64,000 nt of DNA from an uncultured Bacteroidales bacterium (GTDB lineage Bacteria > Bacteroidota > Bacteroidia > Bacteroidales > VadinHA17). Position numbers and translations under genes: made by a program. This document shows positions 13,675 through 58,307 of this stretch, piece after piece. Numbering within the stretch: position 1 is the first letter of the stretch; each line of letters starts with the position of its first letter. The notes below the pieces were generated by a model, which was given only the letters and a program-made list of their open reading frames with translations, was not told the DNA's origin and did no database searches. The DNA is taken from assembly GCA_963733455.1 (NCBI GenBank), contig CAVTDE010000006.1:218373-282372 (forward strand), written 5' to 3'.

Positions 13675-13699
13675 ACTTGTAATACATTAAATTATACAA

Positions 13700-13895: not shown

Positions 13896-14051
13896 AAACT
13901 TTGGATAAAAACTCAGGATGACAAGCGGAGTTGAGTCTGGTTTAGGGGGGAAAAGCAGCGAGCCGCCATCCGGCATTCTTCATAGTTTATTGATTAGCTA
14001 AATGGCGGCTCACTGCTTCTCCCCCCTCTTCCAATATATTCGCTAATGACC

Positions 14052-39866: not shown

Positions 39867-39883
39867 ATGAAATTCAGGGAATC

Positions 39884-40696
39884 ATGATATATGATTGGTT
39901 ATCAAATAACTGGATCGAAATTTTCGGCGCAGTTACAGGTATAATATATGTATTTCTGGAGATCAGGCAGAAACTCTGGCTCTGGCCTGTCGGTATCGTC
40001 ACATCCGCGGTCTATATCTGGGTTTTCTTCACCGGGAAGCTATATGCCGATATGAGTCTGCAGGGGTATTATCTGGCTATCAGCTGCGTGGGATGGTACT
40101 GGTGGATAAAAGGCACAGGGCGAAGGGCGCAGGGCGCAGGGCGCACAGGGCACAGGGCACAGGGCGCAGGGCACAGGGCGCAGGGCGCAGGGCACAGGGC
40201 GCAGGGCGCAGGGCGCAGGGCACAGGGCGCAGGGCACAGGGCGCAGGGCGCAGGGCACAGGGCGCAGGGCGCAGGGCACAGGGCGCAGGGCGAAGAGCGA
40301 AGGGGAGAGTGGGAGAGGGGGGGCCGACGGGACGAAGAGACGAAGGGAGTGAGAGACGAAGGGACTCAGGGACTGAAAGTGACCAGATTGAAATTCAGGA
40401 CTGGCATAACGCTTGCAGGTATTTTTGTCGTGATTTATGCATTTATCTGGCTTTTCCTTACACGGTTGACCGATTCGCCTGTACCAGTCTGGGATTCATT
40501 TATAACCTCGCTCTCAATTATTGCCACATGGATGCTTGCCCGGAAGATATTTGAGCACTGGTACCTCTGGGTAATTGTCAACGGTGTTTCAATAGCTCTT
40601 TTTATTATAAAAGGTCTTTATCCGACAGTTATCCTGTACATTATCTATTTTATAATGTCTTTTGAAGGGTTGAGGCAATGGAAGCGTTCATTGTAA
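39884..40696 (+). CDS. pnuC: PnuC-family vitamin transporter (PnuT-like, thiamine) with a large in-frame repeat insertion
   Basis: WIEIFGA..G, WLWPVGIV, LYAD..LQ.YY....GWYWW, P.WDSF.T.LS..ATWMLARK..EHW..W. Confidence 0.88.
   Translation: MIYDWLSNNWIEIFGAVTGIIYVFLEIRQKLWLWPVGIVTSAVYIWVFFTGKLYADMSLQGYYLAISCVGWYWWIKGTGRRAQGAGRTGHRAQGAGHRAQGAGHRAQGAGRRAQGAGHRAQGAGHRAQGAGHRAQGEERRGEWERGGRRDEETKGVRDEGTQGLKVTRLKFRTGITLAGIFVVIYAFIWLFLTRLTDSPVPVWDSFITSLSIIATWMLARKIFEHWYLWVIVNGVSIALFIIKGLYPTVILYIIYFIMSFEGLRQWKRSL
40117..40293. repeat. Intragenic 7-bp tandem repeat AGGGC(G/A)(C/A) x25, followed by degenerate GGGAGA/GGGAC octamers to about 40377
   Basis: Counted directly: 4 units, an AC spacer, then 21 units. 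Confidence 0.92.
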
Positions 40697-41641
40697 CGAA
40701 TCACACGAGCATTTTATTTTTTTTTGACTTCTCTGACTAAGGTTTATTTCAATCAGCCTGTTTATGCGCTCATCAAAGCATTTATTGCATTTTGAGAAGA
40801 GTTTCAGATCCCATACATCGGCGAAAACTCTTCCTGCCTTAAGTGCAATTCCATATTCAAGAACCTTTTCAAGCGAGCCAATATCGGGCGGAGTGAAGTA
40901 TCCTTTTTCAAGTAAATGATCCATAGCGCCGTTACCTGCCCTTACAGGGATTATGGTACAGCATCCGACGCCGGCATCGAATGCAAAGTCGACCGACCGC
41001 TCAGCCTGATATACTCCTTCTTCTTCCGATATAAAGGGAGGTTTGAGCAAAATAAATGCCCTGGTCGGGATCCTGTTAATTGTCAGGAAGCTGACTGAGC
41101 TTTTGAAATCATTCAGCGTCATCTTCTTATTAAGCCTCATGAGTACTTCAGGGTTGGCAGTTTCAAGTCCAAGTGCAATTTGCAGGTCCGGCTTAAGCAT
41201 ATCCCTGAACTGCAGGCATCTTTTATTAATAAAATGAGGATGACTTTCGACGATAACTGTTTTGAAGCTGCTTACAAGCGACGCAATTCTTTCATAATCT
41301 CCTCGGGGAATTGCCCTGACATCAAAAAAGCTGCCGCTATTGTAAAGCTTAAGGTGTTTAACATCCGGAAGCTGATCCAGTACCCATTCAATCTGATCCG
41401 GAATAGCACCTTCCGGGACCGTTTTATCAGTTGTATTCCTCCACAGATCACACATCAGGCAATGAAACGGACACTCGCGGTTCGTGAGGAAAATGATAGC
41501 ATAATCTTCAATTTCTCCTGTAATGGTGCGTTCCTTTTCAACTAGCCAGGCATAAGGTCTTTTGGGATTGACACTATTTTTCTTTCCCCGTTTTGAGACA
41601 ATCCATTTGCCGGTGATCTTCAATTCAGGATCTTCACTCAT
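40688..41641 (-). CDS. Radical SAM enzyme, RaSEA/TIGR01210-like
   Basis: CPFHCLMC (CxxxCxxC), KLYNSGSFFD, VESHP, GLETAN, LNKKMT, FILLKPPF: the pattern of the archaeosine RaSEA family. Confidence 0.8.
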   Translation of the reverse strand: MSEDPELKITGKWIVSKRGKKNSVNPKRPYAWLVEKERTITGEIEDYAIIFLTNRECPFHCLMCDLWRNTTDKTVPEGAIPDQIEWVLDQLPDVKHLKLYNSGSFFDVRAIPRGDYERIASLVSSFKTVIVESHPHFINKRCLQFRDMLKPDLQIALGLETANPEVLMRLNKKMTLNDFKSSVSFLTINRIPTRAFILLKPPFISEEEGVYQAERSVDFAFDAGVGCCTIIPVRAGNGAMDHLLEKGYFTPPDIGSLEKVLEYGIALKAGRVFADVWDLKLFSKCNKCFDERINRLIEINLSQRSQKKIKCSCDSLQ

Positions 41642-42962
41642 AAATTGAAAAAAATTCTTTTCGGTAAGCTATCTCTTTTTCGGGGAAAAGTTTATTGAAG
41701 TTACTTTTGGAAACTGCCCCATGCTGAAAGCGATTCTTAGGGAATACGGGCATATCAATTCCCGTAATCGCTTTAACTCCCAGCGATACGATCTGACCTT
41801 TGAGGTCATAAAGCTTTTTAGGATCCCAGCCTGTTATTTCGATAAAGGGAATACCTTCTGATATTTCTATAACATGGGGTGAAGTGTATGGACTGAATAC
41901 TTCAAATCCGAGTGAATCGCCTGGGGCATAGGTTCGCATGTACCCCCTGCTAAGTCCGCCGGTATAAGTCAGCGAGTGCTTTATCGATTCCACACCCCAG
42001 CCTTCATGGTACAGCATAAGATTATTGAGAACGCTTCGTATTGTAAGTTCAGGATTTTCCTCAATCGGATAGTCTTTAAGGTTTTCATCGCCCCCGTCGC
42101 CGTCAAAAATGTATTTCCAGTCAGGATAACGTGACCTGATTGCTTTCAGGAGCGACAGGTTCATTGTTGCTGTTTGTATATCAAGAGGCTTGTAGTCTTC
42201 AATAACTTTTATTGCCTCCTTCCAGTCGAGATCGGAGTATTTTATTTCAACAGGCTCAAGAAATAATTCCATCCCCAGGGCTTCCATAAATTTTCTTGCC
42301 TGGATCAGATCGCTGCCGTCCCCATCAACTGAAAGAGTGAATGCTTTAAGTCTCGAAAGGCTTACACCCAGCTCCCGCAGGGCATGATACGAAAGAAGAA
42401 AGACAGAACCACTGTCGATGCCGGCGGAAAATGTAATACCAACAGGCCCTGTTTTTGCCCGTAATAAAAGCCGTTTTTTGATCTCATTATACACAGCACC
42501 AATATAATTATTAGCTATTTTCTGCAAGTCAGTTTCAGAATACCTGTTACGTTCGGGTTCGAAGAACCGTGTATAGACCGGATTAGGGTCGGGACAGCCA
42601 AGGAGTTCAATTTTTGTAATATAATGGGCAGGTGCCATCCGGGTATAGGATGGGTGAAACTGGTTTTCCATTCCTTCTTTTTTAAGATAATCATAAATCT
42701 TGTCGATACGCTCTGCAATTACCAGTTGGGGCCCTGAAGCCCTTTTTGCAATAAAATAGCGCATCGGACGGCCAATTGATCTTGCCATCCTTATCGTCTT
42801 GCCGTCGACGGAGACTAGTGCAAATTGTCCGTCAATGTTGCGGACTTTTTCTAAATCTCCTGATCTTAAATTGTTTTCCGCCTCCTCCAGGGTCATATTA
42901 TAAATAATATTTTTACCCGGATCCATGAGATTTATTATCTTTTCCAAATACTTATTGTCCAT
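41634..42962 (-). CDS. Asparagine-synthetase-like ATP-dependent amide ligase (N-type ATP pyrophosphatase) without a glutaminase nucleophile
   Basis: FSAGIDSG PP-loop, DGDGGDE, IDGQFA...AR.IGRP remnant of the Ntn domain, K.RFQHG; no N-terminal Cys. Confidence 0.8.
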   Translation of the reverse strand: MDNKYLEKIINLMDPGKNIIYNMTLEEAENNLRSGDLEKVRNIDGQFALVSVDGKTIRMARSIGRPMRYFIAKRASGPQLVIAERIDKIYDYLKKEGMENQFHPSYTRMAPAHYITKIELLGCPDPNPVYTRFFEPERNRYSETDLQKIANNYIGAVYNEIKKRLLLRAKTGPVGITFSAGIDSGSVFLLSYHALRELGVSLSRLKAFTLSVDGDGSDLIQARKFMEALGMELFLEPVEIKYSDLDWKEAIKVIEDYKPLDIQTATMNLSLLKAIRSRYPDWKYIFDGDGGDENLKDYPIEENPELTIRSVLNNLMLYHEGWGVESIKHSLTYTGGLSRGYMRTYAPGDSLGFEVFSPYTSPHVIEISEGIPFIEITGWDPKKLYDLKGQIVSLGVKAITGIDMPVFPKNRFQHGAVSKSNFNKLFPEKEIAYRKEFFSIYE

Positions 42963-42971
42963 CTTTTTAAT

Positions 42972-44828
42972 TTATTTATTTATAATACCTGTTCCCTGTA
43001 AGATTGTGATATACCGGTTACAGGGGATATCCCTGTAAACTTCCTTTTTCCCGTCCGACCAGGACACCTCCAGTGTATCTACCTGTTTCTTTGTTCCGAG
43101 TCCGATGTGAAGTCGGGGATCGTTATTTGAGAGGTAGCTTGTAGCCCATTGATTTACGAAGACCTGCTTCTTTCCTGCTGAAGTTGCTGTTACCTTCGCT
43201 CCTATAGCAGCAGCCGGACCATTTTTACCCTCAAGAGTCAGACCGAGCCAATTATTTTTATTGCCTCCGTCGTTCCTTAGTAATGAAGCAGTAGCTTCCA
43301 TATCTACATGAGAAACTACAATATCCAAATCGCCGTCGTTGTCAAAATCCCAAACCGCCAGACCCCTGCCCGAACGTTTTGTCGAGAAATAGGCCCCGTA
43401 ATCCCTTCCGGCATCCCTGAAATGACCTGTACCATCATTTTCAAGCAGAAGGGGATATTGCAGTATGAGCTCTTCAGCAGTACCATTTGCAGATACTATA
43501 TCAAGGTCGCCGTCATTATCAAAATCAAATAATGCAGCACCCCAGGCACCCTTTCCTGCCATAGGTCCTGCCACACCGCCGGACTCTGTAATATCTTCAA
43601 ACATGCCATTTCCGGTATTACGGTATAATGCCCCGAAATCAAGATCGACAACGAGGAGGTCAATTAATCCGTCACCATCAATATCCCCGATTGTTCCGTG
43701 CATTGAACCTGTCCCTCTGCCCTCACTGTTTGCTGCCACACCAATCTCAACAGCTACTTCTTTAAATTTACCGTTATCATTTCTGAACATGAAATTGAGC
43801 TGATGGTCGTTAGCCTGAAAGATATCAAGGTCGCCATCGTCATCATAATCAAACACTGTTAGCCCCATGCATTTTGAGTCGGGATAATAAAGACCCGTTT
43901 TCCTTGTGACGTCAATGAATTTCCCGTCAGGCTGCTGTTCATACAACATCGATGCCTGGCCTTTATACTCCGAAGGGTGGGGCATTCGGCCAGGTGTGAC
44001 CGGAGAATCATACGAGGGATCAAAAGCCAGGAAGTTACCGGTCATAGCATCAAGCCTACCGTCGAGGTTATAATCAATATATGCCACTCCGATGCTCCAT
44101 TTTGTAAAACCGTTCAATTTCACAGGTCCTTCCAGCCCAAGTGATTTTGTAATATCAGTAAATGTCCCGTTACCATTGTTGCGATAAAATACATCCGGAC
44201 CATAATTTAAAAGATAGAGATCCTGGTCGCCGTCGTTATCATAATCTATGGCGCCTGCGGCCATACTCCAGCTTGTATTATTCAGTCCGGAAGCAGATGA
44301 GACATCAGTAAAAGTCCCATTCCCGTTGTTCCGGTAGAGATTATTCGACGTATTTCTGAATACTTTACCTTCAGGATCTGAAATGCCTTCCAGATATGTT
44401 CCGTTCATCATATACAGATCCATAAGGTGATCGTTATTGTAGTCAAAGACGGTTATTCCCGATCCGCTGCTTTCAAGGATATTCTTATAGGAATAATCGC
44501 CGAAGGTATATTTGAAGTCAATTCCGGCTTGCTTTGTAATATCCTTAAATACAATGTTCTTCTTTTGGGCAGATGCGATCGAGGGGATTAAAATGAAGAG
44601 GAGGCAAAGAAGAGTTATCAATTTGAGTTTGTTACCCCCTTTCCTGTTTCCCCCTGGGGGGAAATGATTGTTCGGAACTGTCGAAAGAGTCACTTTTAAC
44701 CGCAAAGAACACAAAGTTGTCGCAAAGTTCGCAAAGCTAAAATCTTTATTTAAACTGCTTTGCGATCTTAGGTTTAAAATCTTAGCGGCCTTTGCGGTTA
44801 ATGGAGTTTGACTTATATAATTTATCAT
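42972..44828 (-). CDS. CRTAC1-family FG-GAP/VCBS repeat protein with C-terminal ASPIC/UnbV domain
   Basis: Multiple DYDNDGDxD Ca-binding repeats; AIGAKV...SYLSNNDPRLHIGLG...V.W.DG. The N-terminal ~65 codons are REP-derived. Confidence 0.88.
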   Translation of the reverse strand: MINYISQTPLTAKAAKILNLRSQSSLNKDFSFANFATTLCSLRLKVTLSTVPNNHFPPGGNRKGGNKLKLITLLCLLFILIPSIASAQKKNIVFKDITKQAGIDFKYTFGDYSYKNILESSGSGITVFDYNNDHLMDLYMMNGTYLEGISDPEGKVFRNTSNNLYRNNGNGTFTDVSSASGLNNTSWSMAAGAIDYDNDGDQDLYLLNYGPDVFYRNNGNGTFTDITKSLGLEGPVKLNGFTKWSIGVAYIDYNLDGRLDAMTGNFLAFDPSYDSPVTPGRMPHPSEYKGQASMLYEQQPDGKFIDVTRKTGLYYPDSKCMGLTVFDYDDDGDLDIFQANDHQLNFMFRNDNGKFKEVAVEIGVAANSEGRGTGSMHGTIGDIDGDGLIDLLVVDLDFGALYRNTGNGMFEDITESGGVAGPMAGKGAWGAALFDFDNDGDLDIVSANGTAEELILQYPLLLENDGTGHFRDAGRDYGAYFSTKRSGRGLAVWDFDNDGDLDIVVSHVDMEATASLLRNDGGNKNNWLGLTLEGKNGPAAAIGAKVTATSAGKKQVFVNQWATSYLSNNDPRLHIGLGTKKQVDTLEVSWSDGKKEVYRDIPCNRYITILQGTGIINK

Positions 44829-47800
44829 TTAGCGGATCTGTCAATATTACTTTTCAATGCATTTAAATATCCATCCGAATTTACTACCCTGGTATTATAT
44901 TCCTGGATGTACTTTTGAAGTTCAGGATCATCGGGATAGATATCCGTACGGGAAGGCGGGTAACTTTTCATACCATGGAAGGGGAGAGGCATTACACTAT
45001 TGCCGAAGGCAGTGTTTAAGTCGCCATCCTTCACCCAGCCTGTAAAATTGATAAGGAAATCCCTTTTCCAGCCTTTCTTTAATTCAGGAAGCTGACCTGC
45101 ATTAAATTTAACAGTGGTTTCATCTCCCGCATTCGAGATAATATATTTATTATCCGATTCGGTCAGAAGCGGCAGTACGTCGCCAAAGCGGGTATAGTTG
45201 CCCGCCAGATCGCGCCATTTCGGATCTTTGGAGACCTTTGAATAATCAAACCAGTGCGGTCCGAAACGGCCGCCTTTTCTATAGCTTTCAGAGAACCCCC
45301 GATAATGGAGGTCAGCTGCCTGAGGGCTCAGACCTGTATAAACCAAAGGATCACTTGAAAGTGCGCCGGAGAAGAAAACATAATCCCAGGAGATATCCAT
45401 ATTTGTCCTTATCCTTATACGGTGATCGTTTGTTAGAAATTTCCCTGAAAGATCAGCAATAACCGTTTTATCCTTGCCCATAGGGAATCCCAGGTTACTA
45501 ATGACTGTCTCCCAATCGCCTTTTTTATTGATGACCTGGATAAGCGGAGGCACGACTTTTATTGAATCAGATTGTGAAATAGCAACATTAATGCTTGCAT
45601 CTGTCGGGAATATCCAGCCATTCATTAAAAGATAAAGCCTGCCTGACTGATCGGGTTTGCCGGGATCAAGTATAAGGTCTTTCATTTCAGTTATGCCCTG
45701 GTATTTGCCCGGGTAGAGACCATGAAAATATCTGTCATCCTTTTGACTGATTAAGGGGAGCACATTGTTTCCCTCTGCATCGACAGCTGAAACCGGGAGT
45801 TGCTTCGATTTAACGCTGTAAACCTCAAACCCGGGAAACGGCGGCGGAGTAAATTGTTCGGCAACAAAGATGTCTGTTGCAGCCGGGTGGTCAACAGCTA
45901 CCAGTTTTATCTTATCCAGATATATAGTCTCCCATAGTTCGGATGTAACCTGTAGGGAATAGTAGCCTTTATCAGACTTAAGCAATTCTCCCGGGATTTT
46001 AATATAATCATCCGAAGCATCCGGAAAAGCATAAGCTGTGGTCCCACCCATGATACCCAGAGGCATGCCGAGACCGCTTCGCCAAAGTACGTCTTTAACA
46101 AACACAAATTCTTCTCCGTTCCAGGTATATAAGAATGGGCAGGAGCCCTTTAGTGTCTGTGCCTCAATTAACGACTGATCTGTTTCCGGGAAGAATATGT
46201 TCTGTGGCACACCGTTGGTCCATGTGATCCGGATTACCTCAGCCATCGGGCGGCTTCCGATACCAAAATGGACATTGGGGTCAGTTACCACCATTGCCTG
46301 GTAGAGATCGCCGGCTCTTATTTCAACCTTTGCACCAATCCCAAAATGGTTGTTTTTGGCACTTCCGGCTCTTAAACCAACGAGCTTGATCCTGACAAAA
46401 TGATTGGCGTTGCCGCCATCGTTACGGAGCAGTGACACACCTCCGTTAATTCCGGCAATCACTGCATCAATATCCCCGTCGTCATTATAGTCAAACAGAG
46501 CTATCTGTCTTCCGGATTTCGGTTCATCAGGCAATATCCGGGTAGCGTCGTTGAACTGTCCTTTACCCTCATTATGATAAAGAAATATTCCCCTGCGCCC
46601 TTTTTCAGCTGCTTCGCCGGTTATTAAAAGATCAAGAAGACCATCGTTGTCAAAATCAAAGAACGCAGCATCATATACCCTGACATTCTGAATTAAGCTG
46701 AACATCTTTTCCGAATCACCTGCGGTTTCAAAACTGCCGTCCTTCCTGTTATGGTATAATTTATGGCCGGTTCCGCTATCGGAGGGGATAAACAGATCGA
46801 GAAATCCGTCATTGTCGTAATCCCCAACCGTTACTGCGCCTGAACCTCCCGTACTTTTGAGTCCTCTTTCGTCTGTAAGATCCTTATAAATCCCCTGCCG
46901 TTGATTTGAATATAAGATGTTGCCCGCGTTCTCATTAACAACGATAAAATCAAGGTCACCATCCTCATCAAAATCACCAAATGCTGCATCACGACTTATT
47001 GCATCACCATCGGCTACTCCCATTTTTTCAGCCTGTTCCTGAAATGTACCGTCCGAATTATTACGTAACAGAAGATTTTTACCTGTCCTTGCCTCAAAAA
47101 AATCAAGGTCTCCGTCGTGATCAGCATCAAAAGGCAAGACCATATTCCCTGCCGTCCTGCCACCGGTTCCGGCACGTTCCGTTACATCTTCAAAAGTCCC
47201 GGTGCCCGAATTCCGGTATAAGAGGTCACCGCTTTCCCTGACAATATAAAGATCCAGAAAACCATCATTGTCATAGTCGGCAAAAGCAGCTGAGGATTCT
47301 TTTCCTGAATGTTTTAAACCGGCCTTGTCCGACACATCAGTGAATCTTCCCATCTCGTTGTTGAACAGGTAGTGTCGGTAGGATGAAGTTCCCTGGTCAT
47401 AGCTTCCTGCGTAAAGATCTATATCTCCGTCACCATCATAGTCGGCTGCTTCAATGTGTGTTAAGTAACCGGACCCAGCCTTTTCATTTTCGCCGGAAGA
47501 TGCTATTATATTCAGTCCGGCTGAGACAGAAGCGTCCGTAAAATTAATAACCTCAAGCAGGGACTTGCCTTCATTGTTTTGTGAAACTGACTGCTGGTCG
47601 AAAGTGATTACCGGAAATCCTATAAGCGAACCGCCCGGTCCCTTTAAATCCATCATTCCGGCCTGGAAAGGAGGAGTTACTTTAAGATAATTGTGGAAGA
47701 TAGTGAATTGAAGAAGAGCTTTTGCCTTGTCCTGGGTTTTAAGGGACAAAATTGCCTGGTTAAAATAGTCTGTTGCTTCTTTTGGAAATTCCGGAAATTG

Positions 47801-48403: not shown

Positions 48404-48428
48404 GAGTATAAAGTTAAGAAATAAACGG

Positions 48429-49577: not shown

Positions 49578-50440
49578 GGCAATAAGATCTCCCTTCCGAT
49601 AGCAGAGGCTATTTTCCTGAGATCGTCCATCATAAGATCAAATTCATCAAGGCTAAGCGATTGGGAGCCATCACACAAAGCCTGCTCAGGATTAAAATGG
49701 ACCTCGACAATCAGGCCATCTGCTCCGGCAGCTATTGCCGCTTTAGCCATTGAAGGAACCATCCATCTGAGACCGGTCCCATGACTTGGATCAACTATTA
49801 CGGGAAGATGGGTGAGACTTTTTAGCATGGGAACAGCGCTCAGGTCGAGCGTATTTCTTGTGGAAGTTTCGAAAGTGCGTATGCCCCGTTCACAAAGAAT
49901 AACCTGGTCATTACCCTGATTCAGAATATATTCGGCAGCAAGAAGAAACTCTTCAACAGTTGCCATCATACCCCGTTTGAGTAAGACGGGTTTCCTGCAT
50001 AATCCTGCTTCTTTCAGGAGAGGGTAGTTTTGCATATTTCTTGAACCGATCTGTATCATATCGGCGTACCCGGCCACCAGTTCCACCTTTCTTGTGTCCA
50101 TAACTTCCGTTACAACTGGCATTCCGATCTCTTTTTTAACAATACCGAGTAGTTTTAATCCTTCTTCACCCAAACCCTGAAAGTTATATGGTGATGACCG
50201 GGGTTTAAAAGCTCCTCCCCTGAGTATGCTGGCACCGCTTTTTCTTACACCACGGGCAGTTTCAAAAAGTTGTTCCCTGCTTTCAACTGCACATGGACCA
50301 GCAATTATAACCACCCCGCTACCACCGGCCTCAACTCCGCCAATATTCACAATAGTCGAGTCGGGTCTTGATACGCGGTTCACTCTTTTGGGAATTGGAA
50401 AATCAACATATGCCGGATTACTGCATGAATTTGTATCCAT
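49559..50440 (-). CDS. aroF: 3-deoxy-7-phosphoheptulonate (DAHP) synthase, type I-beta, lacking a regulatory domain
   Basis: [63 protein letters not shown]. Confidence 0.92.
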
Positions 50441-50461
50441 TTTATCCTTTTCTTTATATTA

Positions 50462-51772: not shown

Positions 51773-51776
51773 GGCT

Positions 51777-52985
51777 TTACAAGTTTGATTTCAGCAATTC
51801 ACCGCGGCTTACACCCCTGGAAGTAGCCACCCACAGCACATCATCTTTGGCATCAACACCAATTGTAAAATTATGTGAGATCGAAGGAGATAAAGTTATC
51901 TCTTTTACATCCGTTCCTCTGGTGATTATCGCTTTACCATTTTCATCATTATCATTTTTCTTATATGTGACCCATGTCTCGCCATCGGTGCTGCTTAATC
52001 CGTTGTCGCTGCAGACAAATACCACCGGGCCTTCGGCTCTTATAAAATTTATGAAATTGCTCGCAAGGCCACTGTCCTCCTTGAAGTAGCCTCTCCAGTT
52101 CTTGCCATCGTACCGGCTCATGCCAAAATAAGTAGAAACCCACAGAATGCTGTCGGCCCATGATGTTGCTGTAGTTATATCGTGAACAAGGCCGTCATCG
52201 CGCAGCAGGTCTATCTCCATTTCACCATCGGGGTCAGTATAATCCCTGAATTTTTTAGTTTCTGTGGTATACTCAATTACTCCGCCGCCCCAGGCAGCGA
52301 TGAAAATCTTTCCACCTCCCGCCGATACACCGTATGTCCATGGTTCATGCATCGGAGCGTTTTTTTCGGTGAAAATTTCCCATTCATTAGTGAAAGTGTC
52401 CAGATGACCGGCACCTCCGGCTGTAGCAACCCAGACATCTTTCCCGTCGCAGATAACGCAATATACCAGGTCGTTGGGAAGTCCGCTGTTGAATTGATTA
52501 TACGTTGTGAATTTCCCGGAAGACCACTTTGTCAGACCCCCAAACGTTCCGAGCCACACATCACCTGTCAGTTCACTTACATCGATAGAGACTATTCCGT
52601 TATGAGCAAGGCCATCATTGGTAGTGTAGGTTCGCCATTTCCCATTTTCGTAAACAGCCAGGCCGTCGTGGGTTCCTGCCAGAACACGATCACCGTCTAT
52701 CCTTACAGCATAAGCTTTATCGGAAGGGAGACCGTCTTTTGTTGTAAAGTTGCGCCAGTGCCCATAAACAGGTACTCCTTTGGACTTAATTCCAGAATTC
52801 TTACTGATGGGGGCATTCTGGTCGTTTTCATTTGAAGAAGTCAGGGAGGATCTTTCATTTATCCTTCTCTTACCGGCAGCTGAAGAATAGACTTTGCTTA
52901 CCAGTATCCCGACAACACAAATTACAAGCAGCAAAACCAGTATTATTGTACTTCGAACAGTTCTTCTATAAAAAAATTTATTCAT
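51777..52985 (-). CDS. Exported beta-propeller protein (two-component-regulator propeller repeats), stand-alone
   Basis: Repeated W..FTT.DGL.SD/HN...vW.gT.gGl blades; N-terminal TM/signal; no kinase domain. Confidence 0.78.
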   Translation of the reverse strand: MNKFFYRRTVRSTIILVLLLVICVVGILVSKVYSSAAGKRRINERSSLTSSNENDQNAPISKNSGIKSKGVPVYGHWRNFTTKDGLPSDKAYAVRIDGDRVLAGTHDGLAVYENGKWRTYTTNDGLAHNGIVSIDVSELTGDVWLGTFGGLTKWSSGKFTTYNQFNSGLPNDLVYCVICDGKDVWVATAGGAGHLDTFTNEWEIFTEKNAPMHEPWTYGVSAGGGKIFIAAWGGGVIEYTTETKKFRDYTDPDGEMEIDLLRDDGLVHDITTATSWADSILWVSTYFGMSRYDGKNWRGYFKEDSGLASNFINFIRAEGPVVFVCSDNGLSSTDGETWVTYKKNDNDENGKAIITRGTDVKEITLSPSISHNFTIGVDAKDDVLWVATSRGVSRGELLKSNL

Positions 52986-52996
52986 GGTCGTCCTGG

Positions 52997-55033
52997 TTAG
53001 TGTGAGGCGAATTTTGCCTGATATTTTTCTTTAGGGTCCTTATAATATTCCGGTCCGCTTAATGTTTTAAGGTACTCTACCAGCTGGTTAAGTTCAATCT
53101 TGGTAAGATCATTTGCCACACCATGCTTATCTTCAGGACTGTACTTTGTCCAGATTTCTTCCAGCGACTCAGCACGCCCGTCATGAAGGTAGGGTGAAGA
53201 GGCATAGATATTGTTCAGATGCGGTGTATCTAACAGCATTGAATCGTCGGATGCTGCAAGCGTTCCCACATCCGCCATTTTCAAATTGGTATAGTATGGT
53301 GGAGGATGACAGGTAATACAACGGTTTGAAGGAGGAATGATGTTGCCTCTGGTATCAGTTGTGCGTTCAAATATTGCTTTGCCTTTAAGCTGCATTTCTG
53401 TTAATTCACCGGTTGGGTTATACTGAAGATTAGGAGGATAATAAACATCCCTCATGATATAAGCCACAATTGCATCCAGATCCTTATAATTAAAGGCTTC
53501 GGTCCTGGTCAGAACTGTTGAAAAACGGATCCCGTCCTGCCTGTACACAGTCTGGTTTTTACCACTCCATTTGTATGGAGGAGTATCGCCAATTTCCCTT
53601 AACGATTGGGTATTCGTAATATTACGGCCCATATCCTTTGAAGCCATATTATAAACCAGGCCATCTTCATGAGTGTCGGGATGACATGTACTACATGAAT
53701 ACTGGGTCTGGAAAGTATGACCGGCATTGTTAAAGAGTCTGCGTCCCTGCCTGAAAACTGTTATCCTGCGCGGTCCGCCCAGATCAATGGTGTTTACTGT
53801 TTTAAGGCTTTGTGTGTTTATAACTGCTATCCTGTCCTCTAGATGTTCAGCAACGTATAACAATTTTCCGTCAGGTGATAGTGCAAGTCCTTTGGGATTC
53901 GCTCCCGTTGGAATTCTGGCAATAACGTACATGCTGCTTATCCCCAGATGATTAGGGTAAGTCTTGAGTGTGCCGGGGGTAGAATTGCTTATTAATTTTC
54001 TGACTGAATCGATATCAACTACGGAGATAACGTTTACGCCAGAATTTGATATAAAAGCCTTCTTCCCGTCAGGTGTGATCACAACATCGTAGGGATCGGA
54101 GTAATATGCATTTGGCTCATCAAGTAACAACTGAATTAATCTTCCATTTTCCTTTTGTTCAGCTATACAAATACCGTGAGTCATCATCCACCCACGTTCC
54201 ACCTGAATTGTCGGGATCAGGTTCTTCGGACGGATCATGGTCACAAATGCCAGGTCACCCTCCGGAGTGAAACTGACGTTTTCCATCATATATACGGATT
54301 CCACATCCCTGCGTTCAGTTACTCTCTGGTTCGTGTCACTGATAAATGTAAGTTCGCTTTTCAGTGGTTCACCATAAGGAGCAAAATTTGCGCGTCTGCT
54401 TGTTACTATCAGAGCTTTTCCGTCGGGAGACAACCGGATACCTGTGGGGTTATTGCCAAGGGTGATCCTTTTACTTTCTTCTCCGGTTTGAAGGTTAATA
54501 ACGGAAAGGTTTGAAGAGTAGGAATTTACCGTGTAAAGCGATTTTCCGTCTGTGCTTAATGCCAGACCTGCCGGGCCTCCGGCAGTTTTCAGGGAATCAG
54601 TTACTTTCAGCTGTTCCAGATCAATGACTGACACATTATCAGACCATTGGTTGCTGACATAAGCAAACTTCTCATCCTTACTCAGGATAACCCTGTAAGG
54701 ATGCTTCCCGACCTGAATTTTATGGATAACCTTATTTGCCCTTGTATCCGCAATCAGCAGAACATCACCCTCTTCGGCAACTATATACAGTTTAGATCCG
54801 TCTTTTGATACCGCTAAATTAAACGGAGAATAATAACCGGCTTCTGTAAACTTCCGGATTAACCTGTTTTTGCTTATATAAAGATGACATGAAAGGCAAT
54901 TTAACGGGTGATCCGTAACACCTGTCTTTGAATAAATATGTTCACCTGCCAGCTTACGTCCGGGGAAATGAATAAACAGCCCCACTGCAAAAAGTAAAGC
55001 AACACCCAATAATATTATATAAGGCCTCTTCAT
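52997..55033 (-). CDS. YVTN beta-propeller fused to a dihaem cytochrome c peroxidase/MauG-like domain (HzsB-HzsC-like architecture), three CxxCH motifs
   Basis: CLSCH near the N-terminus; YVTN blades (P.glalspDGk.lYv); CSTCHPD, NTQSL..I.DTPPYKWSG, CITCH, TPHL.NI....PYLHDG.A.SLEE. Confidence 0.82.
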   Translation of the reverse strand: MKRPYIILLGVALLFAVGLFIHFPGRKLAGEHIYSKTGVTDHPLNCLSCHLYISKNRLIRKFTEAGYYSPFNLAVSKDGSKLYIVAEEGDVLLIADTRANKVIHKIQVGKHPYRVILSKDEKFAYVSNQWSDNVSVIDLEQLKVTDSLKTAGGPAGLALSTDGKSLYTVNSYSSNLSVINLQTGEESKRITLGNNPTGIRLSPDGKALIVTSRRANFAPYGEPLKSELTFISDTNQRVTERRDVESVYMMENVSFTPEGDLAFVTMIRPKNLIPTIQVERGWMMTHGICIAEQKENGRLIQLLLDEPNAYYSDPYDVVITPDGKKAFISNSGVNVISVVDIDSVRKLISNSTPGTLKTYPNHLGISSMYVIARIPTGANPKGLALSPDGKLLYVAEHLEDRIAVINTQSLKTVNTIDLGGPRRITVFRQGRRLFNNAGHTFQTQYSCSTCHPDTHEDGLVYNMASKDMGRNITNTQSLREIGDTPPYKWSGKNQTVYRQDGIRFSTVLTRTEAFNYKDLDAIVAYIMRDVYYPPNLQYNPTGELTEMQLKGKAIFERTTDTRGNIIPPSNRCITCHPPPYYTNLKMADVGTLAASDDSMLLDTPHLNNIYASSPYLHDGRAESLEEIWTKYSPEDKHGVANDLTKIELNQLVEYLKTLSGPEYYKDPKEKYQAKFASH

Positions 55034-55036
55034 TTC

Positions 55037-56473
55037 TTATTCCAGTTCTATCTCCTTTTCATTCAGTTTTGATTTGTGCACAGGTATCACATGAGGAGGT
55101 TTACTTACTGAAAGGCAGTACCTGTTATCAGGAGCCAGCTCCTGATCTTCATGACAACCTGCACAGCCCCTTCGCTCATTTGGCCGTAAATAAATCCAGT
55201 CACAGGGTCCGTTAAGGACATTCCCCTTATCATCAATAGTTTGTATCCTGAACGGAATATCTGCCAGTACTTTTAAATAGAACGAACCATCAGTTTCAAC
55301 GTGGACGGTGCCAAGTAATGAATCAATTCCGATAACCTCAATCCGTGAAGCTTTTGGGACTGAAGTTCCCTCTGTAGCTGATCCGTTTGAACGGGAATTC
55401 ATGTCCTGGCATAGCAATAAGCCTGTTTTAACTCCCATATCAACTTCACTGGGTAGTTTCCTGGGCCGTTCATAAGTTTGAACCACGACAGCTTCAACCA
55501 CATCATAATCCGGATTATCATAAATCATCCCGGAAGTGACCTGTTTACCTCTGTCAAATTCATAAAGTGAATAATGATCTGAATCAGCGGGTTTGTAAGA
55601 GACCAGTAACCTCGTCGTATCAACAGGAAAAACATCCAGAAAGGTGCCTTTAAGTGCGTTGGTAAGATTGACCCTTGAATGCAACGGCCTTTTATAATTT
55701 ATAGATATTACATTTCCTTTGTCCTGGTTTATGGGATCTGATTCTATAAAAACCACTTTGCCATCGGGTGTTTCCCGGACACGGTTTAGCAGAACATTTC
55801 TTTCATGGCTTTTATAGAACATCTCCGCCTTTGTTCCATCGGGTCGCATCACTGTCAGAATGGCGTCTCCCTTCTCAGGGATCACTGGTCTGTCGATACA
55901 AACGATACGTCCGTCCTTTAAAATATCCGAGGCAAAATATACATCCGGAGTGAAAGAGATCTGATTAAGTCCTGACCCGTCAAGATTAATTGTACAAAGA
56001 GAATGCGTGGTTTTTAAAGTATCATTGTCTGTAAATTTACTGAATACAATCTTACCGCCGGGCAGGTAAGCAGGATCGATGCAGTTTTCAGTTGTTGTGG
56101 TTACCTGCCGTATAGAAGCATCCTTTAAATTCATTTCCCATATCTGCCATGGATCATTTTCAGTCTTTTGCCCGGCAAACAATAACCTCTTGGCATCCCA
56201 TGAGACTTCAGGCGACCGGGCGGAAAAGAAATCTCCGGAAATCACCTTGATTGATTTCACGGGGTTTTTAGGATCAAATGCAATTATTTGTGACTCAGGA
56301 ATATACCTCCATAAATCGCCTGTTATAAAGTTTTTAATCCCCATTTTCCCTCTGACCTGTGTCAAAATGATCTCCCCCTGGGTAATCCCTCTGGTGCATG
56401 ATGGAAGGAAGTATCCTGAAGCGACAAGACTTAATATGATAGAAAATAGGTTAAACTGTTTCCTGAATCTCAT
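55037..56473 (-). CDS. Hydrazine synthase alpha-subunit-like lipoprotein (TolB-like propeller plus HZS_alpha middle domain, one CxxCH)
   Basis: LPSC lipobox; PEVSWDAK.LLF, WQIWEM, DPAYLP.G.IVF, PDGTK blades; DGSFYLKV.ADIPFRIQTID..G...W.YLRPNERRGCAGCHE. Confidence 0.8.
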   Translation of the reverse strand: MRFRKQFNLFSIILSLVASGYFLPSCTRGITQGEIILTQVRGKMGIKNFITGDLWRYIPESQIIAFDPKNPVKSIKVISGDFFSARSPEVSWDAKRLLFAGQKTENDPWQIWEMNLKDASIRQVTTTTENCIDPAYLPGGKIVFSKFTDNDTLKTTHSLCTINLDGSGLNQISFTPDVYFASDILKDGRIVCIDRPVIPEKGDAILTVMRPDGTKAEMFYKSHERNVLLNRVRETPDGKVVFIESDPINQDKGNVISINYKRPLHSRVNLTNALKGTFLDVFPVDTTRLLVSYKPADSDHYSLYEFDRGKQVTSGMIYDNPDYDVVEAVVVQTYERPRKLPSEVDMGVKTGLLLCQDMNSRSNGSATEGTSVPKASRIEVIGIDSLLGTVHVETDGSFYLKVLADIPFRIQTIDDKGNVLNGPCDWIYLRPNERRGCAGCHEDQELAPDNRYCLSVSKPPHVIPVHKSKLNEKEIELE

Positions 56474-56485
56474 AAAAGGTTCATT

Positions 56486-58183
56486 TTAAGGTTCCCTGAC
56501 AGTAAGAATCTGGTTAGCACTGACATTTTCCAATACCTGAGTTTTGCCTGAAGGCCATTTTATTTCGATCTTATCTGCCATTACGTTTTTAGCGAGGCCG
56601 AAGTGTATCCTTGGATCATTCTGGGAGAGGTAGCCTGTCGTACTTCTTTTCTGGGTGGTCTGGGTTTTGCCTCCGGCGGTAAGTTTCACCCTTGCGCCGA
56701 TGCCGTCACGGTTACTTGTTTGTCCGACAAGATTAAGGATCAGCCAGTTATTTTGATTGCCCTTATTGTTTCTCAGGAACACAGCCTGGTCATTAAGATT
56801 CACAATAAAAGCATCAATATCGCCATCGTTGTCATAATCACCAAAACATGCCCCGCGTCCTACAAATTCTTTATCAAAATACCTTCCTCTTTCCCCTGAA
56901 ACATCCTTGAATTGTCCGTCCCCCATATTCTCGAATATCTGATCTTCCTGACCGTACAGGTGCTTCAGCGCTCCATTGGTTTTAAAGATATCAGGATCAC
57001 CGTCATTATCGTAGTCAATAAATGAGGAGGACCAGCCAACAAACTGTCCGGCAGCCATTGCGATGCCGGAAGGGTATGATTTATCACTGAAAACGCCATT
57101 CCCCAGATTCTCATACAGCGAACAGTATGAATCATCGGAAACGAAAAGATCCAGTAACCCGTCTGCATTGAAATCAGCAAAATCTACTGACATACTGATT
57201 GTAGCTTCCCCTGCCTGGCTGAATGCTGTTCCCGACATTGTTCCCCTGTCGGAGAATCCCTTACCCCCGTCGTTGTGCCAGAGGTAATTCAGTGAATGAT
57301 CATTTGCAACAAAAACATCTGTAAAACCATCGTTGTCATAATCAGCTGCTCCGACACCCATTGCCCTTCCGTCAATATCGGTGATCCCCATGGTTGAGGT
57401 GACATCTTCAAACAAACCATTCCCTTTGTTGTGATATAAAACATCCTTCTGGCTGTCATATGCCATCGGGCCCGGGAAACCGTCGGGGGCATAATAATAT
57501 TTGTATTGCGGATCAAAATAAAGGTAATTGCCAACGTACAGGTCGAGCAGTCCGTCATTATCATAATCAAACCAGGCAGCACCAACACTGCATTCATTTC
57601 CTCCGCTGACACCTGCGCGTTTTGTTACGTCCGAAAAGGTTCCGTTTCCGTTATTCTTTAACAAAATATTAGGGCCATAATTACTTATGTACAGATCGGG
57701 GAAACCATCATTGTTAAAATCACCTGCTGTCACGCCCATACCATATCCATGTCCGGCTGCACCTGCTTTCACTGTAACATCTTCAAAGGTTCCATCCTGA
57801 CGGTTATGATAAAGATGGTTATGAGGCAATTCTTCGGGCTTCTCGCCTTTACTGAATCCATCCAGCCATGTACCACTGCATGCATAGATGTCAATGTACC
57901 CGTCCTGGTCATAATCAAAAAAAGCCGCACCACCACCAACTGATTCTACGATGTTATTAAGATCCTTGTCCCCGATAGAGTGAACAAAATCCAGGCCGAT
58001 TGCCTGGCTGATTTCCTGAAAAAAATCATTATTTGCCACCGGGGCAGAGGCTGATTGTGGTTTTTTTACATTAGATGAATCATTTCCGGACTTGCATCCC
58101 GGAAGTATCAGAATAAGAACGAGAAGGAACTGTATGTGCCTGTACCCATTCCTTCTAAAGTAATTATTAAATTGTATACTCAT
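56486..58183 (-). CDS. CRTAC1-family FG-GAP repeat lipoprotein with ASPIC/UnbV domain
   Basis: LPGC lipobox, DYDNDG repeats, NRDGIGARV...GYLSQNDPRIHFGL...I.WPSG. Start moved to the ATG at 58183 because a -7 box overlaps the ORF-track start. Confidence 0.88.
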   Translation of the reverse strand: MSIQFNNYFRRNGYRHIQFLLVLILILPGCKSGNDSSNVKKPQSASAPVANNDFFQEISQAIGLDFVHSIGDKDLNNIVESVGGGAAFFDYDQDGYIDIYACSGTWLDGFSKGEKPEELPHNHLYHNRQDGTFEDVTVKAGAAGHGYGMGVTAGDFNNDGFPDLYISNYGPNILLKNNGNGTFSDVTKRAGVSGGNECSVGAAWFDYDNDGLLDLYVGNYLYFDPQYKYYYAPDGFPGPMAYDSQKDVLYHNKGNGLFEDVTSTMGITDIDGRAMGVGAADYDNDGFTDVFVANDHSLNYLWHNDGGKGFSDRGTMSGTAFSQAGEATISMSVDFADFNADGLLDLFVSDDSYCSLYENLGNGVFSDKSYPSGIAMAAGQFVGWSSSFIDYDNDGDPDIFKTNGALKHLYGQEDQIFENMGDGQFKDVSGERGRYFDKEFVGRGACFGDYDNDGDIDAFIVNLNDQAVFLRNNKGNQNNWLILNLVGQTSNRDGIGARVKLTAGGKTQTTQKRSTTGYLSQNDPRIHFGLAKNVMADKIEIKWPSGKTQVLENVSANQILTVREP

Positions 58184-58207
58184 AGCAATTGGGTTCAGCA
58201 AAGGATG

Positions 58208-58246
58208 CAAATATAAAGATAATCTGACTTCAATGTAACAAAGTTA
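58208..58246 (-). promoter_or_regulatory. Candidate promoter of the minus-strand cluster: two TAnnTTTG boxes in the divergent spacer
   Basis: The reverse strand reads TAACTTTG (58246-58239) and TATATTTG (58215-58208). Confidence 0.5.
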
Positions 58247-58307
58247 AAGTTGATTTGTTACTACATTAATCTAATCTGATTATTCCAGTATATCCGGATT
58301 AGCAGCT

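Follow-up and report, generated by a model that had tools for sequence, protein, structure and literature searches.

To our knowledge, hydrazine synthase (HZS), the anammox enzyme, was long thought to be without relatives. An earlier report of hzs-like genes in metagenome-assembled genomes (MAGs) of Phycisphaerae suggested a broader enzyme family (accessible part of PMC10732223), and a recent study sorts HZS homologues into clades (Hagglund et al. 2025, Genome Biol Evol, PMC12758564; all statements about this paper refer to its accessible part). In clade III of that study an FG-GAP/CRTAC1 gene stands upstream of the gene for an alpha-like protein, a fused beta-gamma-like gene follows, and two binding-protein genes lie downstream; the alpha-like protein lacks haem alpha-II and roughly the last hundred residues, and the beta-gamma-like protein has one extra haem motif and a Trp at the position of gamma-His144 (PMC12758564). 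Clade III was given no function there, and HZS homologues were concluded to be unable to make hydrazine. Here we analyse a block of eleven genes, g1-g11, in a 64,000-nucleotide stretch of DNA from an uncultured Bacteroidales bacterium (GCA_963733455.1, contig CAVTDE010000006.1, forward-strand positions 218,373-282,372; hereafter the window). The block is a clade III HZS-homologue cluster in an extended form: all five features published for the clade fit, with the order g1, g2, g3, (g4), g5, (g6), g7, three CXXCH motifs in g3 and one in g2.

An initial annotation of the window had presented the block as a candidate undescribed system. Since the core matches clade III, already published without a function, this was only partly right; what we did not find in the accessible part of that paper is the extension. 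Its conserved members are a propeller resembling the sensors of hybrid two-component systems (HTCS), an extra DAHP synthase and two more CRTAC1-like proteins. New as well are a Rid/half-chorismatase-like gene, a two-component pair and a SusC/SusD pair (SusCD) in relatives, and the presence of an AsnB-like/radical-SAM pair as a recruited module. Our literature searches, mostly of top-ranked results, found no paper joining HZS homologues to SusCD, DAHP synthase, Rid/chorismatase-like genes or the AsnB-like/radical-SAM module; PMC12758564 was the only one found to link hydrazine synthase with FG-GAP proteins, and nothing relevant was found on UnbV/ASPIC with SusD or on chorismatase with cytochrome c in Bacteroidota. 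The block consists of eleven co-oriented minus-strand open reading frames (ORFs) spanning 40688-58210, as first annotated, and Pfam and NCBIfam confirmed all of the families named at that stage. The genes, and the pair divergent from them, are listed here in window coordinates.

g1, 56486..58210, minus strand: predicted FG-GAP/UnbV_ASPIC (CRTAC1-like) lipoprotein; probably begins at ATG 58183; the lipobox Cys is residue 39 of the long ORF
g2, 55037..56473, minus strand: short HZS-alpha-like mono-haem protein, predicted lipoprotein; propeller plus HZS_alpha middle domain; one CXXCH at 437-441
g3, 52997..55033, minus strand: fused HZS-beta-gamma-like tri-haem protein; N-terminal hydrophobic anchor or signal and extra CXXCH at 46, then a 7-bladed propeller, then a C-terminal di-haem domain like that of cytochrome c peroxidase (CCP) and MauG
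g4, 51777..52985, minus strand: predicted membrane-anchored Reg_prop beta-propeller, like the periplasmic sensor of hybrid two-component proteins, without kinase domains
g5, 50462..51772, minus strand: predicted exported type-I periplasmic binding protein (LivJ/K-like), without a cognate ABC permease
g6, 49559..50440, minus strand: extra class I-beta DAHP synthase, 293 aa, without a regulatory domain, cytoplasmic
g7, 48429..49577, minus strand: second type-I binding protein, probable lipoprotein; N-terminus ...IIINSC
g8, 44825..48403, minus strand: 1192-aa TPR + FG-GAP + UnbV_ASPIC protein, predicted lipoprotein; N-terminus ...IFSC
g9, 42972..44828, minus strand: predicted exported FG-GAP/UnbV_ASPIC protein; probable start TTG 44621 (549 aa), cleavable signal peptide
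g10, 41634..42962, minus strand: putative ATP-dependent amide-forming enzyme of the AsnB superfamily (PP-loop), without the N-terminal glutaminase cysteine; cytoplasmic
g11, 40688..41641, minus strand: RaSEA-like (TIGR01210-like) radical SAM enzyme; start overlaps the g10 stop by 8 nt
SusC-like and SusD-like pair, 58308-61613 and 61650-63407, plus strand: divergent from g1; outer-membrane uptake

Judged by their sequences, g2 and g3 are true homologues of all three HZS subunits. The g2 product (478 aa, lipobox FLPSC) matches Pfam HZS_alpha (E = 2e-17) and has PDB 5c2v_A as its best solved relative (7.7e-32). Residues C437, C440 and H441 of its only CXXCH (CAGCH) are kept in at least 90% of 28 orthologues, and the protein ends 37 residues past this motif, so that haem alpha-II is missing. 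In g3 a YncE-type propeller is joined to CCP_MauG (Pfam), and the best solved relatives are 5c2v_B (4.2e-53, nearly full length) and 5c2v_C (1.8e-16); the C-terminal di-haem domain alone again finds 5c2v_C (5.3e-18), followed by the di-haem enzyme BthA (6e1c, 1.5e-4) and by CCPs at 2e-3 or above. The three CXXCH motifs of g3, at 46, 447 and 572, are invariant in 9 orthologues. So is W489, which pairs in the 5c2v_C alignment with a residue that we take, by count, to be gamma-His144; gamma-Cys165 falls in a 5-residue gap of g3, which has one Cys outside its three CXXCH motifs. Together the two genes are predicted to encode an envelope haem complex in which an alpha-like lipoprotein with one haem joins a membrane-anchored beta-gamma-like protein with three. 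A predicted complex of g2 (27-478) with g1 (60-574) scored 0.10 against a mark of 0.32, a value that has no bearing on binding.

The HZS of 'Ca. Kuenenia stuttgartiensis' (5c2v/5c2w) shares the propeller plus c-haem architecture, and no solved protein is closer to g2 or to either half of g3; a beta-gamma fusion is known from Scalindua (PMC12758564). The differences lie in the haem sites and in the setting. The solved HZS alpha chain has 782 residues and two haems against 478 residues and one haem in g2; the haem alpha-I site of HZS, with Tyr591 as ligand and His587 bound to zinc, is probably lacking in g2; g3 has no gamma-Cys165 link, Trp for gamma-His144 and an extra N-terminal haem. The host is a member of the Bacteroidales, and no hydrazine dehydrogenase context was found, PF13447 (HAO-type multihaem) being unmatched in the host genome but equally unmatched in all 14 control genomes. 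For all homologues of clades I-III a two-residue gap at Tyr591/Ser590 is described (PMC12758564); our HMMER alignment of g2 with 5c2v_A stops at the CXXCH (CAGCH-E versus CSGCH-Y) and covers positions up to that motif. Scores against the NCBIfam models fall well below their cut-offs, both for g2 (hydrazine_alpha, 128.1 bits versus 800 in an 804-position model) and for g3 (hydrazine_BC, beta and gamma: 245.5, 215.2 and 81.1 bits versus 1250, 560 and 625). With the defining residues and the cut-offs both failed, the sequence comparison indicates that g2-g3 is not a hydrazine synthase, and the predicted complex would have lost, or never had, the residues that make hydrazine.

These results bear on the possible N-N or N-O chemistry that had been proposed for the block. 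N-N chemistry is unlikely, because g2 and g3 lack the residues by which hydrazine synthase is defined. Inorganic nitrogen chemistry as in HZS, either the conversion of NO to hydroxylamine or the handling of hydroxylamine, hydrazine or N-oxides for detoxification or respiration, would fit a homology that is specific to all three HZS subunits and closer than to any other solved protein. It would also fit the propeller, which aligns with the whole HZS-beta chain including QVERGWMMTHG, presumably the HZS beta-subunit loop. We nevertheless consider it highly improbable, given an alpha-like protein that has a canonical haem site but no haem alpha-II and, going by the published gap, no Tyr591/Ser590 positions (PMC12758564), the Trp in place of gamma-His144, the absence of gamma-Cys165, NCBIfam scores of 128 versus 800 and 245 versus 1250, and a locus in which nothing found with Pfam or NCBIfam points to nitrogen-oxide metabolism.

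In Pfam the C-terminal domain of g3 scores 34.4 bits for CCP_MauG (cut-off 25.6), with CXXCH 447 and 572 as its haem motifs, and it shares the two CXXCH and the typical inter-haem Trp with di-haem proteins of the CCP/MauG/MbnH-BthA type (PMC12758564). It differs from them in being fused to a 7-bladed propeller and an extra haem, in being paired with an alpha-like haem protein, and in a sequence whose match to HZS-gamma (5.3e-18) is far stronger than that to BthA (1.5e-4) or CCPs. The explanation that we favour, while giving it somewhat less than an even chance, is an envelope redox system of the peroxidase/MauG type that acts on an organic small-molecule substrate, is fed by a chorismate-derived compound and has CRTAC1-like partners. 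Proteins like g2 are numerous: among 1.84 billion representatives there are 3601 matches at E <= 0.001, 1420 at <= 1e-10 and 366 at <= 1e-30. Pfam HZS_alpha also scored above its cut-off in the control genome of Bacteroides thetaiotaomicron, so this model organism has a protein with an HZS_alpha domain.

Co-occurrence of the genes in other genomes, one of the checks suggested with the initial annotation, was found to be that of a single conserved locus. Ten relatives of ~28 kb each were fetched and their gene order compared with the window: g1-g5 and g7-g10 stand in window order in all ten, g11 is present in nine, and g6 is intact in seven, truncated or split in two (G018, G003) and not found in one (G001). 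A scan with the g3 alignment over one genome per species (185,579 species by the tool's description) confirmed 262 relatives, of which the best 80, with g3 identities of 63-74%, were kept and examined. All eight genes scored for order (g1, g2, g3, g4, g5, g7, g8 and g9) are present in 60 of these 80 loci, and 59 of the 60 keep the window order at identities of 42-59% for g2 and 63-74% for g3. The other 20 lack at least one scored gene; 19 of them are represented by 3.8-15 kb of sequence, and for L066 the fetched flank ends before g9. Such an arrangement is far beyond chance. Orthologues of g1 (66-79% identical) form the head of the locus in relatives, those of g4 (58-81%) always come right after g3, and those of g8 are 58-72% identical. 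The 80 loci are labelled mostly as Bacteroidales MAGs, with Flavobacteriaceae and Chitinophagaceae MAGs and one Mariniphaga MAG among them, and two carriers are cultured: Maribacter arenosus CAU 1321 (L087) and M. polysiphoniae DSM 23514 (L104).

Strong g2 matches were found in 15 of 24 other genomes of the same genus, and among 16 genomes of other families of the order there were one strong match (G031) and one weak. An even draw of 300 other Bacteroidota genomes gave one strong and one weak match to g3, and the near-absence of g3 from this draw indicates a locus that is rare in the phylum and concentrated in few lineages. The locus or its distal half appears to be doubled in two genomes of the genus, G006 (C23, C24) and G020 (C64, C130). 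The most divergent haem locus seen, with g3 50% identical, is that of G240 (L120:59-2775), in the order g8-like, g7-like, a 2-kb gap, g1, g2, g3, g4, Rid-like, g5 and SusC; upstream of it lie genes for an MFS transporter and a small RnfD/NqrB-like membrane protein.

Around the constant genes the relatives vary. A gene for a cytoplasmic 190-aa protein of Rid fold lies between g4 and g5 in 61 of 76 loci. Among the 51 loci with at least 6.5 kb of upstream sequence, an OmpR-type response regulator (RR) and a HAMP histidine kinase (HK) stand between g1 and SusC in 29, and a SusC match lies upstream of g1 on the opposite strand in 26. M. polysiphoniae has instead of SusCD and RR/HK a MacAB-TolC-like pump divergent from g1 (L104, 666-6241, minus strand), where genes for a TolC-like OEP, an HlyD-type fusion protein, an ABC ATPase and a MacB/FtsX permease stand together with one for a His_kinase-domain protein. 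With SusCD, RR/HK or a pump upstream, the flank is variable and g1-g9(-g11) is the constant part. The window, with eleven genes, is a reduced member of a conserved 11-14-gene locus.

This mixture of constancy and variation is also where a lack of any common function has to be weighed, that is, a chance or selfish juxtaposition of two or three unrelated units (the haem/CRTAC1 core, the DAHP synthase and g10-g11) kept by descent only. The varying upstream flank (SusCD, RR/HK or the pump in Maribacter), the coming and going of the accessory Rid-like and DAHP synthase genes, and the demonstrable independence of g10-g11 as a module, described below, are what it would predict. What makes it very unlikely in our view is that the order is the same in 59 of 60 complete loci across Bacteroidales, Flavobacteriaceae and Chitinophagaceae at the identities given above. 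Moreover, g10-g11 have been rearranged to the other end of the locus in L065 and L066 and yet remain beside it and adjacent to each other, and within the genus g10 and g11 are found only in genomes with the locus or, in one case, with a remnant of it.

The other envelope parts include three CRTAC1-like proteins, g1, g8 and g9, which have the CRTAC1/ASPIC-UnbV layout, an FG-GAP propeller followed by UnbV_ASPIC. The Pfam E-values for FG-GAP_3 and UnbV_ASPIC are 8.6e-54 and 5.5e-24 in g1, 6.8e-47 and 3.9e-06 in g8, and 1.2e-45 and 8.8e-19 in g9; g8 also matches several TPR families, and its C-terminal ~450 aa match no Pfam family. The g1 product (N-terminus ...ILILPGC) aligns with human cartilage acidic protein 1 (CRTAC1, PDB 9etn) at 2.4e-22. 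UnbV proteins occur in 131 of the 300 other Bacteroidota genomes, and our literature searches found no function for the bacterial CRTAC1/UnbV proteins. The product of g4, initially listed only as a propeller, can be described more closely. It has an N-terminal hydrophobic helix and a Reg_prop match (8.1e-05), and its only clear solved relative is PDB 4a2l (1.2e-19 in four stretches), a Bacteroides entry named 'two-component system sensor histidine kinase/response', which we take to be the hybrid two-component sensor BT4663. A match of g4 to a 'glycosylhydrolase' model of NCBIfam is sub-threshold (26.8 versus a cut-off of 175 bits).

The binding proteins g5 and g7 match Peripla_BP_6 at 8.5e-48 (164.2 bits) and 2.2e-33 (116.8 bits), with a cut-off of 31.7 bits. 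They share this domain with LivJ/LivK-type ABC systems, from which the locus differs in that the cognate permease and ATPase are not part of it: no LivHMGF-type permease or ATPase genes were found among the scanned ORFs of 36000-64000, and the single PF02653 permease match of the host genome lies on another contig (C5). The nearest solved relatives of g5 are 3hut, 3td9 and 4gnr, and g7 matches 4gnr at 2.4e-13; several lower-ranked matches (4ey3, 3sg0, 3tx6) are presumably binding proteins for lignin-derived aromatic acids.

The divergent SusC/SusD pair of the window (Plug/CarbopepD_reg_2/TonB_dep_Rec_b-barrel and SusD_RagB/SusD-like_3 in Pfam), the lipoproteins, the periplasmic sensor-type propeller and, in relatives, the adjacent two-component regulator give the locus a likeness to polysaccharide utilization loci (PULs). 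A catabolic system of this kind could work on a recalcitrant polymer or oligomer other than a glycan (polyphenolic, humic or peptide-like), captured at the surface by the CRTAC1-like lipoproteins; SusCD would import the fragments, the haem complex would cleave or oxidise them in the periplasm, the binding proteins and the propeller would handle the products, and cytoplasmic enzymes would finish the process. No carbohydrate-active enzyme family, whether of glycoside hydrolases, lyases or esterases, was found in the eleven products (E <= 0.01), a difference from PULs that nonetheless suits a non-glycan substrate. SusC upstream in 26 and RR plus HK in 29 of the 51 relatives, the HTCS-like propeller g4, the labels of the relatives (fen, lake, soil and sediment MAGs) and the occurrence of FG-GAP/UnbV genes, common in the phylum (131/300), beside SusCD in a second type of locus (L162, L165, L167, L171) also agree with it. 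PULs, however, include neither haem enzymes nor a biosynthetic DAHP synthase, an enzyme without a place in catabolism; about half of the relatives have no SusCD, 25 of the 51 loci showing no SusC upstream; phyla that lack SusCD also hold HZS-like/CRTAC1 clusters (PMC12758564); and the window block has no inner-membrane importer. We therefore regard a catabolic system as unlikely, if worth keeping in mind.

The biosynthetic side of the locus begins with g6, which scores above the cut-offs of NF006421 (445.8 versus 335 bits) and TIGR01361 (393.9 versus 267.75 bits) and has no ACT or chorismate-mutase domain in Pfam. It is the third gene of the DAHP_synth_1 family in the host genome; the others are KdsA and a DAHP synthase-chorismate mutase beside prephenate dehydrogenase. 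Among 66 loci holding g5 and g7, 63 have g6, which we take to be dedicated to the locus. The Rid-like gene of the relatives is among the best conserved of the locus (71-92% identical in 80 named loci, 69% in G240), and its product matches chorismatase models weakly (PF21168, 0.0062; TIGR04444, 1.6e-5). A canonical RidA deaminase was considered for it and rejected: the conserved motif is PAST, where the canonical RidA motif is, we assume, PARS with the catalytic Arg. The best alignment of the 190-aa protein is to the N-domain of a chorismatase-like protein of G071 (8e-7; PASTGI versus PAATGI).

This G071 protein is encoded in a different HZS-like locus of a Bacteroidales genome (L122 = G071:C2:152000-171999, ~1079-14012, minus strand), in the genome that gave the weak g3 match of the phylum draw and in which g10 was not found. 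The order there is an IclR regulator, an HzsBC-like protein (598 aa), the full-length chorismatase-like protein (FkbO_Hyg5-like_N + L-PSP), a 230-aa protein of no family, Dak1, Dak2, a DeoC/LacD aldolase, a Mal s 1-like propeller, a 1204-aa HZS_alpha + FGE-sulfatase fusion and a class II aldolase. Two unlike loci of HZS type thus each hold a gene of Rid/chorismatase fold together with enzymes that might supply early aromatic or sugar-phosphate metabolism, and this is the main support for the chorismate-derived substrate or mediator that we infer. The shikimate-derived molecule of the initial annotation gains some support in the same way, from the extra DAHP synthase, from the Rid/half-chorismatase-like gene in 61 of 76 relatives and from the chorismatase-like gene of the other HZS-like locus.

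The last two genes of the block have a history of their own. The g10 product matches Asn_synthase (4.4e-10) and scores 44.1 bits against a TIGR01536 cut-off of 267.1; its N-terminus is MDNKYLEK, its single Cys is not N-terminal, and its SxGxDS motif (S179, G181, D183, S184) is invariant in 17 sequences. No PDB sequence match was found at E <= 1. An AF2 model (pLDDT 73.9) gave full-length Foldseek matches to ASNS, AsnB, beta-lactam synthetase, carbapenam synthetase and TsnB9 (6gq3, 1ct9 and 1m1z among them). With beta-lactam synthetase, carbapenam synthetase and TsnB9, members of the AsnB superfamily that do without canonical glutamine hydrolysis, it shares the fold over its full length, the PP-loop and the lack of an N-terminal catalytic Cys, and it differs from them in gene context and in an identity of 12-18% in structural alignments. 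Its nearest ESM Atlas clusters are mostly from Acidobacteriota. The g11 product is closest to RaSEA (TIGR01210, 111.3 bits, 5.3e-32, cut-off 212.15), carries a CX3CX2C motif (CPFHCLMC at 57), and has queuine lyase as its best solved relative (PDB 6p78, 7.4e-05).

RaSEA, in archaeosine synthesis, and the bacterial queuine lyase are radical SAM enzymes that act on C-N bonds of 7-deazaguanines. Like RaSEA with ArcS, g11 stands with a partner that putatively makes a C-N adduct; it differs from the ArcS-RaSEA system in that this partner is an AsnB-type PP-loop enzyme, that the host is a bacterium, and that most genomes with the module add an FAD-dependent halogenase-like protein. ArcS itself performs a lysine transfer (accessible part of PMC11298593). 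None of the pathways after which the families are named is present, in agreement with the initial annotation, which called none of them complete here: asparagine synthesis is rejected for want of the N-terminal catalytic Cys and of a score above the TIGR01536 cut-off, archaeosine synthesis because g11 is below the RaSEA cut-off and its adjacent partner is AsnB-like (no search aimed at ArcS or ArcTGT was made), branched-chain amino-acid ABC uptake because the locus has no cognate permease or ATPase genes, and true anammox because the haem count of g2, the gamma residues of g3 and the NCBIfam scores do not fit HZS.

Within the genus g10 was found in 16 of 24 genomes and g11 strongly in 15 of 24, all of them with g2 except G010, where a g9 fragment, g10 and g11 lie beside another FG-GAP/UnbV gene and g2 was not found. 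Outside the genus, among the 16 genomes of other families of the order, g10/g11 occur only in G031. In G005 (L026:3630-5900) the two genes form one 756-aa ORF with Asn_synthase and Radical_SAM, either a natural fusion or an assembly frameshift. The wider draw places the pair elsewhere as well: 16 of the 300 Bacteroidota genomes have g10, and these belong to 8 genera and are kin rather than independent cases; 15 of the 16 have no g3 match. In 7 of 7 fetched genomes with g10 but no haem locus (L205-L211), an FAD-dependent tryptophan-halogenase-like protein accompanies g10 and g11; in G043 this flavoprotein is fused to g11 in one 772-aa ORF, and in G212 an extra gene lies between g10 and g11. The distant haem-locus carrier G240 has g10, g11 and the flavoprotein on another contig (L123), and the flavoprotein had no match in the window's genome.

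A metagenome scan with the g10 alignment confirmed at least 595 relatives, of which the best 80 were examined. Here 50 of the 54 loci that extend 1 kb or more downstream have g11 no farther than 700 nt from g10, and an FG-GAP/UnbV gene is directly upstream of g10 in 25 of 44 loci with at least 1.8 kb upstream. Of 14 loci with at least 9 kb upstream, five have haem-locus genes, all with g10 identities of at least 73%, and nine have none, seven of these standing in housekeeping-like surroundings (e.g. DNA ligase, EngA, RibBA). A second type of Bacteroidota locus (L162, L165-L168, L171) has FG-GAP-like genes, SusD and SusC divergent from g10-g11, all three being seen in L165 and L171 (two FG-GAP genes) and parts of the set in shorter loci. 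After g11 in L171, the sole one of these scanned with Pfam, come genes for a peptidase S58, URO-D-like and creatininase-like proteins and a 773-aa protein with weak family matches. We conclude that g10-g11 is an independent, widespread module, usually with a flavoprotein, that was recruited to the locus and is far commoner than the haem genes. The pair had first been presented as a part specific to the system; a haem-locus-specific role is rejected, 15 of the 16 carriers in the phylum draw having no g3 match.

The company of FG-GAP/UnbV genes suggests a second way to read the pair, in which the CRTAC1-like proteins are targets of maturation and acquire a cross-link or protein-derived cofactor through the cytoplasmic AsnB-like/radical-SAM module (with a flavoprotein elsewhere) and the periplasmic MauG-like haem complex, much as in the biogenesis of tryptophan tryptophylquinone (TTQ) and cysteine tryptophylquinone (CTQ) quinoproteins. 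In clades I-III, HZS-like genes of various phyla are found in the company of CRTAC1-like genes (PMC12758564). Every one of the 16 g10 carriers among the 300 genomes is UnbV-positive; the 25 of 44 metagenome loci with FG-GAP/UnbV directly upstream include the distant L186, L196 and L197; G010 keeps g10-g11 beside an FG-GAP/UnbV gene though g2 was not found; the gamma-like domain has the CCP/MauG-type Trp; and the absence of the flavoprotein partner from the window's genome can be read in the same direction. Against this, 115 of 131 UnbV-positive genomes have no g10, so the module is not generally needed by UnbV proteins and a general requirement of this kind is rejected. The nine of 14 loci with long upstream sequence also lack an FG-GAP gene directly upstream of g10, seven being the housekeeping-like ones, while in L165 and L171, among the nine, the FG-GAP-like genes lie beyond SusD and SusC. 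G240 carries the flavoprotein as well as the haem locus, modified residues are not known, and g11 is RaSEA-like, whereas the cross-linking maturases known to us are of the SPASM type. Maturation of the CRTAC1-like proteins is accordingly a slim prospect.

The peroxidase/MauG-like explanation that we favour would assign the parts as follows. The di-haem domain of g3 would act as bacterial cytochrome c peroxidase and MauG do: electrons or holes would move between two c haems by way of the conserved Trp, and redox equivalents would be exchanged with the alpha-like haem and the extra N-terminal haem. The substrate would be an organic small molecule, most likely aromatic or amino-acid-like, held in the periplasm by g5 and g7. 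When the operon is on, the extra DAHP synthase would lift the cytoplasmic supply of chorismate; in most relatives the Rid/half-chorismatase-like enzyme would add to this, and a chorismate-derived compound would serve as the substrate or as a redox mediator. The CRTAC1-like proteins may be binding or scaffold partners of the haem complex, and SusCD and the two-component pair, in about half of the loci, may together with the sensor-like propeller provide a PUL-like frame for uptake and sensing. By analogy with ArcS-RaSEA, g10-g11 could carry out ATP-dependent amide or amidine formation followed by radical C-N chemistry. A more specific version, which we consider decidedly improbable, is that a new envelope enzyme of HZS stock couples or oxidises an aromatic made by the operon itself (DAHP synthase plus half-chorismatase-like enzyme) and handed over by g5/g7. 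In that case the locus would manufacture, in the periplasm, a redox mediator or secondary metabolite derived from chorismate, with the CRTAC1-like proteins and SusCD for docking or re-uptake and the AsnB-like/radical-SAM pair tailoring the molecule or a CRTAC1-like partner.

Several points weigh against this explanation. All catalytic steps are inferred, as are the substrate and the placing of the lipoproteins. The window has neither the Rid-like gene nor the two-component pair found in most relatives, and a Rid-like orthologue is absent from the whole host genome (98.8% complete), so that the proposed chorismate branch is incomplete in the window. A fold search with the model of the Rid-like protein (pLDDT 74.9) ranks RidA/YjgF at the top rather than chorismatases, and the DAHP synthase is missing from 3 of 66 loci, including both of the cultured Maribacter. 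The nearest solved relatives of both g5 and g7 are amino-acid binders, and the window block encodes no inner-membrane exporter or importer. Upstream, 25 of the 51 loci show no SusC match, and 19 of the 51 have no regulator pair either. The conservation described above is that of the best 80 of 262 g3 relatives, with 182 more distant ones outside the examined set. Finally, the window encodes HydF, the [FeFe]-hydrogenase maturation GTPase (9829-11190, minus strand), which suggests a fermentative host, probably an anaerobe, and fits poorly with a peroxide-driven reaction; Maribacter, in which the same locus was found, is aerobic.

Some details of the block itself can be refined. Spacers of at most 25 nt, or overlaps, were correctly noted for the listed ORFs, but probably do not hold between g8 and g9. 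The signal peptide of g9 begins ~68 residues into the longest ORF, right after TTG 44621, and orthologue alignments start at residues 50-94; a start at this TTG, which we consider probable, leaves a spacer of ~203 nt in place of the overlap. For g7 an alternative start at Met6 (49562) would abut the g6 stop. The N-termini, judged by eye, are of lipoprotein type in g1, g2, g7 and g8, have a signal or anchor in g3, g4, g5 and g9, and are those of cytoplasmic proteins in g6, g10 and g11, in agreement with the eight exported and three cytoplasmic products first proposed. In a sigma-70 promoter and terminator scan of 40300-58400, every minus-strand terminator-like site falls inside a gene. The GC content of the block (0.43-0.47) is close to that of the window (0.39-0.46), and recent horizontal arrival in the host genome is rejected on this ground.

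Convergent with g11, genes for a TonB-dependent receptor (811 aa) and then a PnuC-family transporter occupy 37431-40696 on the plus strand. This pair also adjoins g11 in G003, G005, G014, L127, L142, L158 and L182; it probably serves vitamin uptake and reflects mere lineage synteny. Farther away the window contains an IS110-family transposase (DEDD_Tnp_IS110 + Transposase_20; 12376-13674, minus strand) and a 1011-aa protein that combines a GDSL-like lipase/acylhydrolase domain with an MBOAT O-acyltransferase domain (6695-9730, plus strand), its gene preceded by that of an SLT/LysM lytic transglycosylase at 5138-6682.

Short relatives of HZS are fairly common (366 clusters at E <= 1e-30), and in Bacteroidota, cultured Maribacter included, they stand in a fixed context of 11-14 genes. 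The chorismate link, if true, would join primary aromatic biosynthesis to an envelope haem enzyme, of which we found no description in the literature. The analysis also exposes a widespread cytoplasmic module of three genes, AsnB-like, RaSEA-like and flavoprotein, as uncharacterised. The locus may give a first functional handle on the bacterial CRTAC1/UnbV proteins, and it offers a tractable route, in a cultured host, to the function of the ancestral enzyme type and to the origin of the anammox enzyme.

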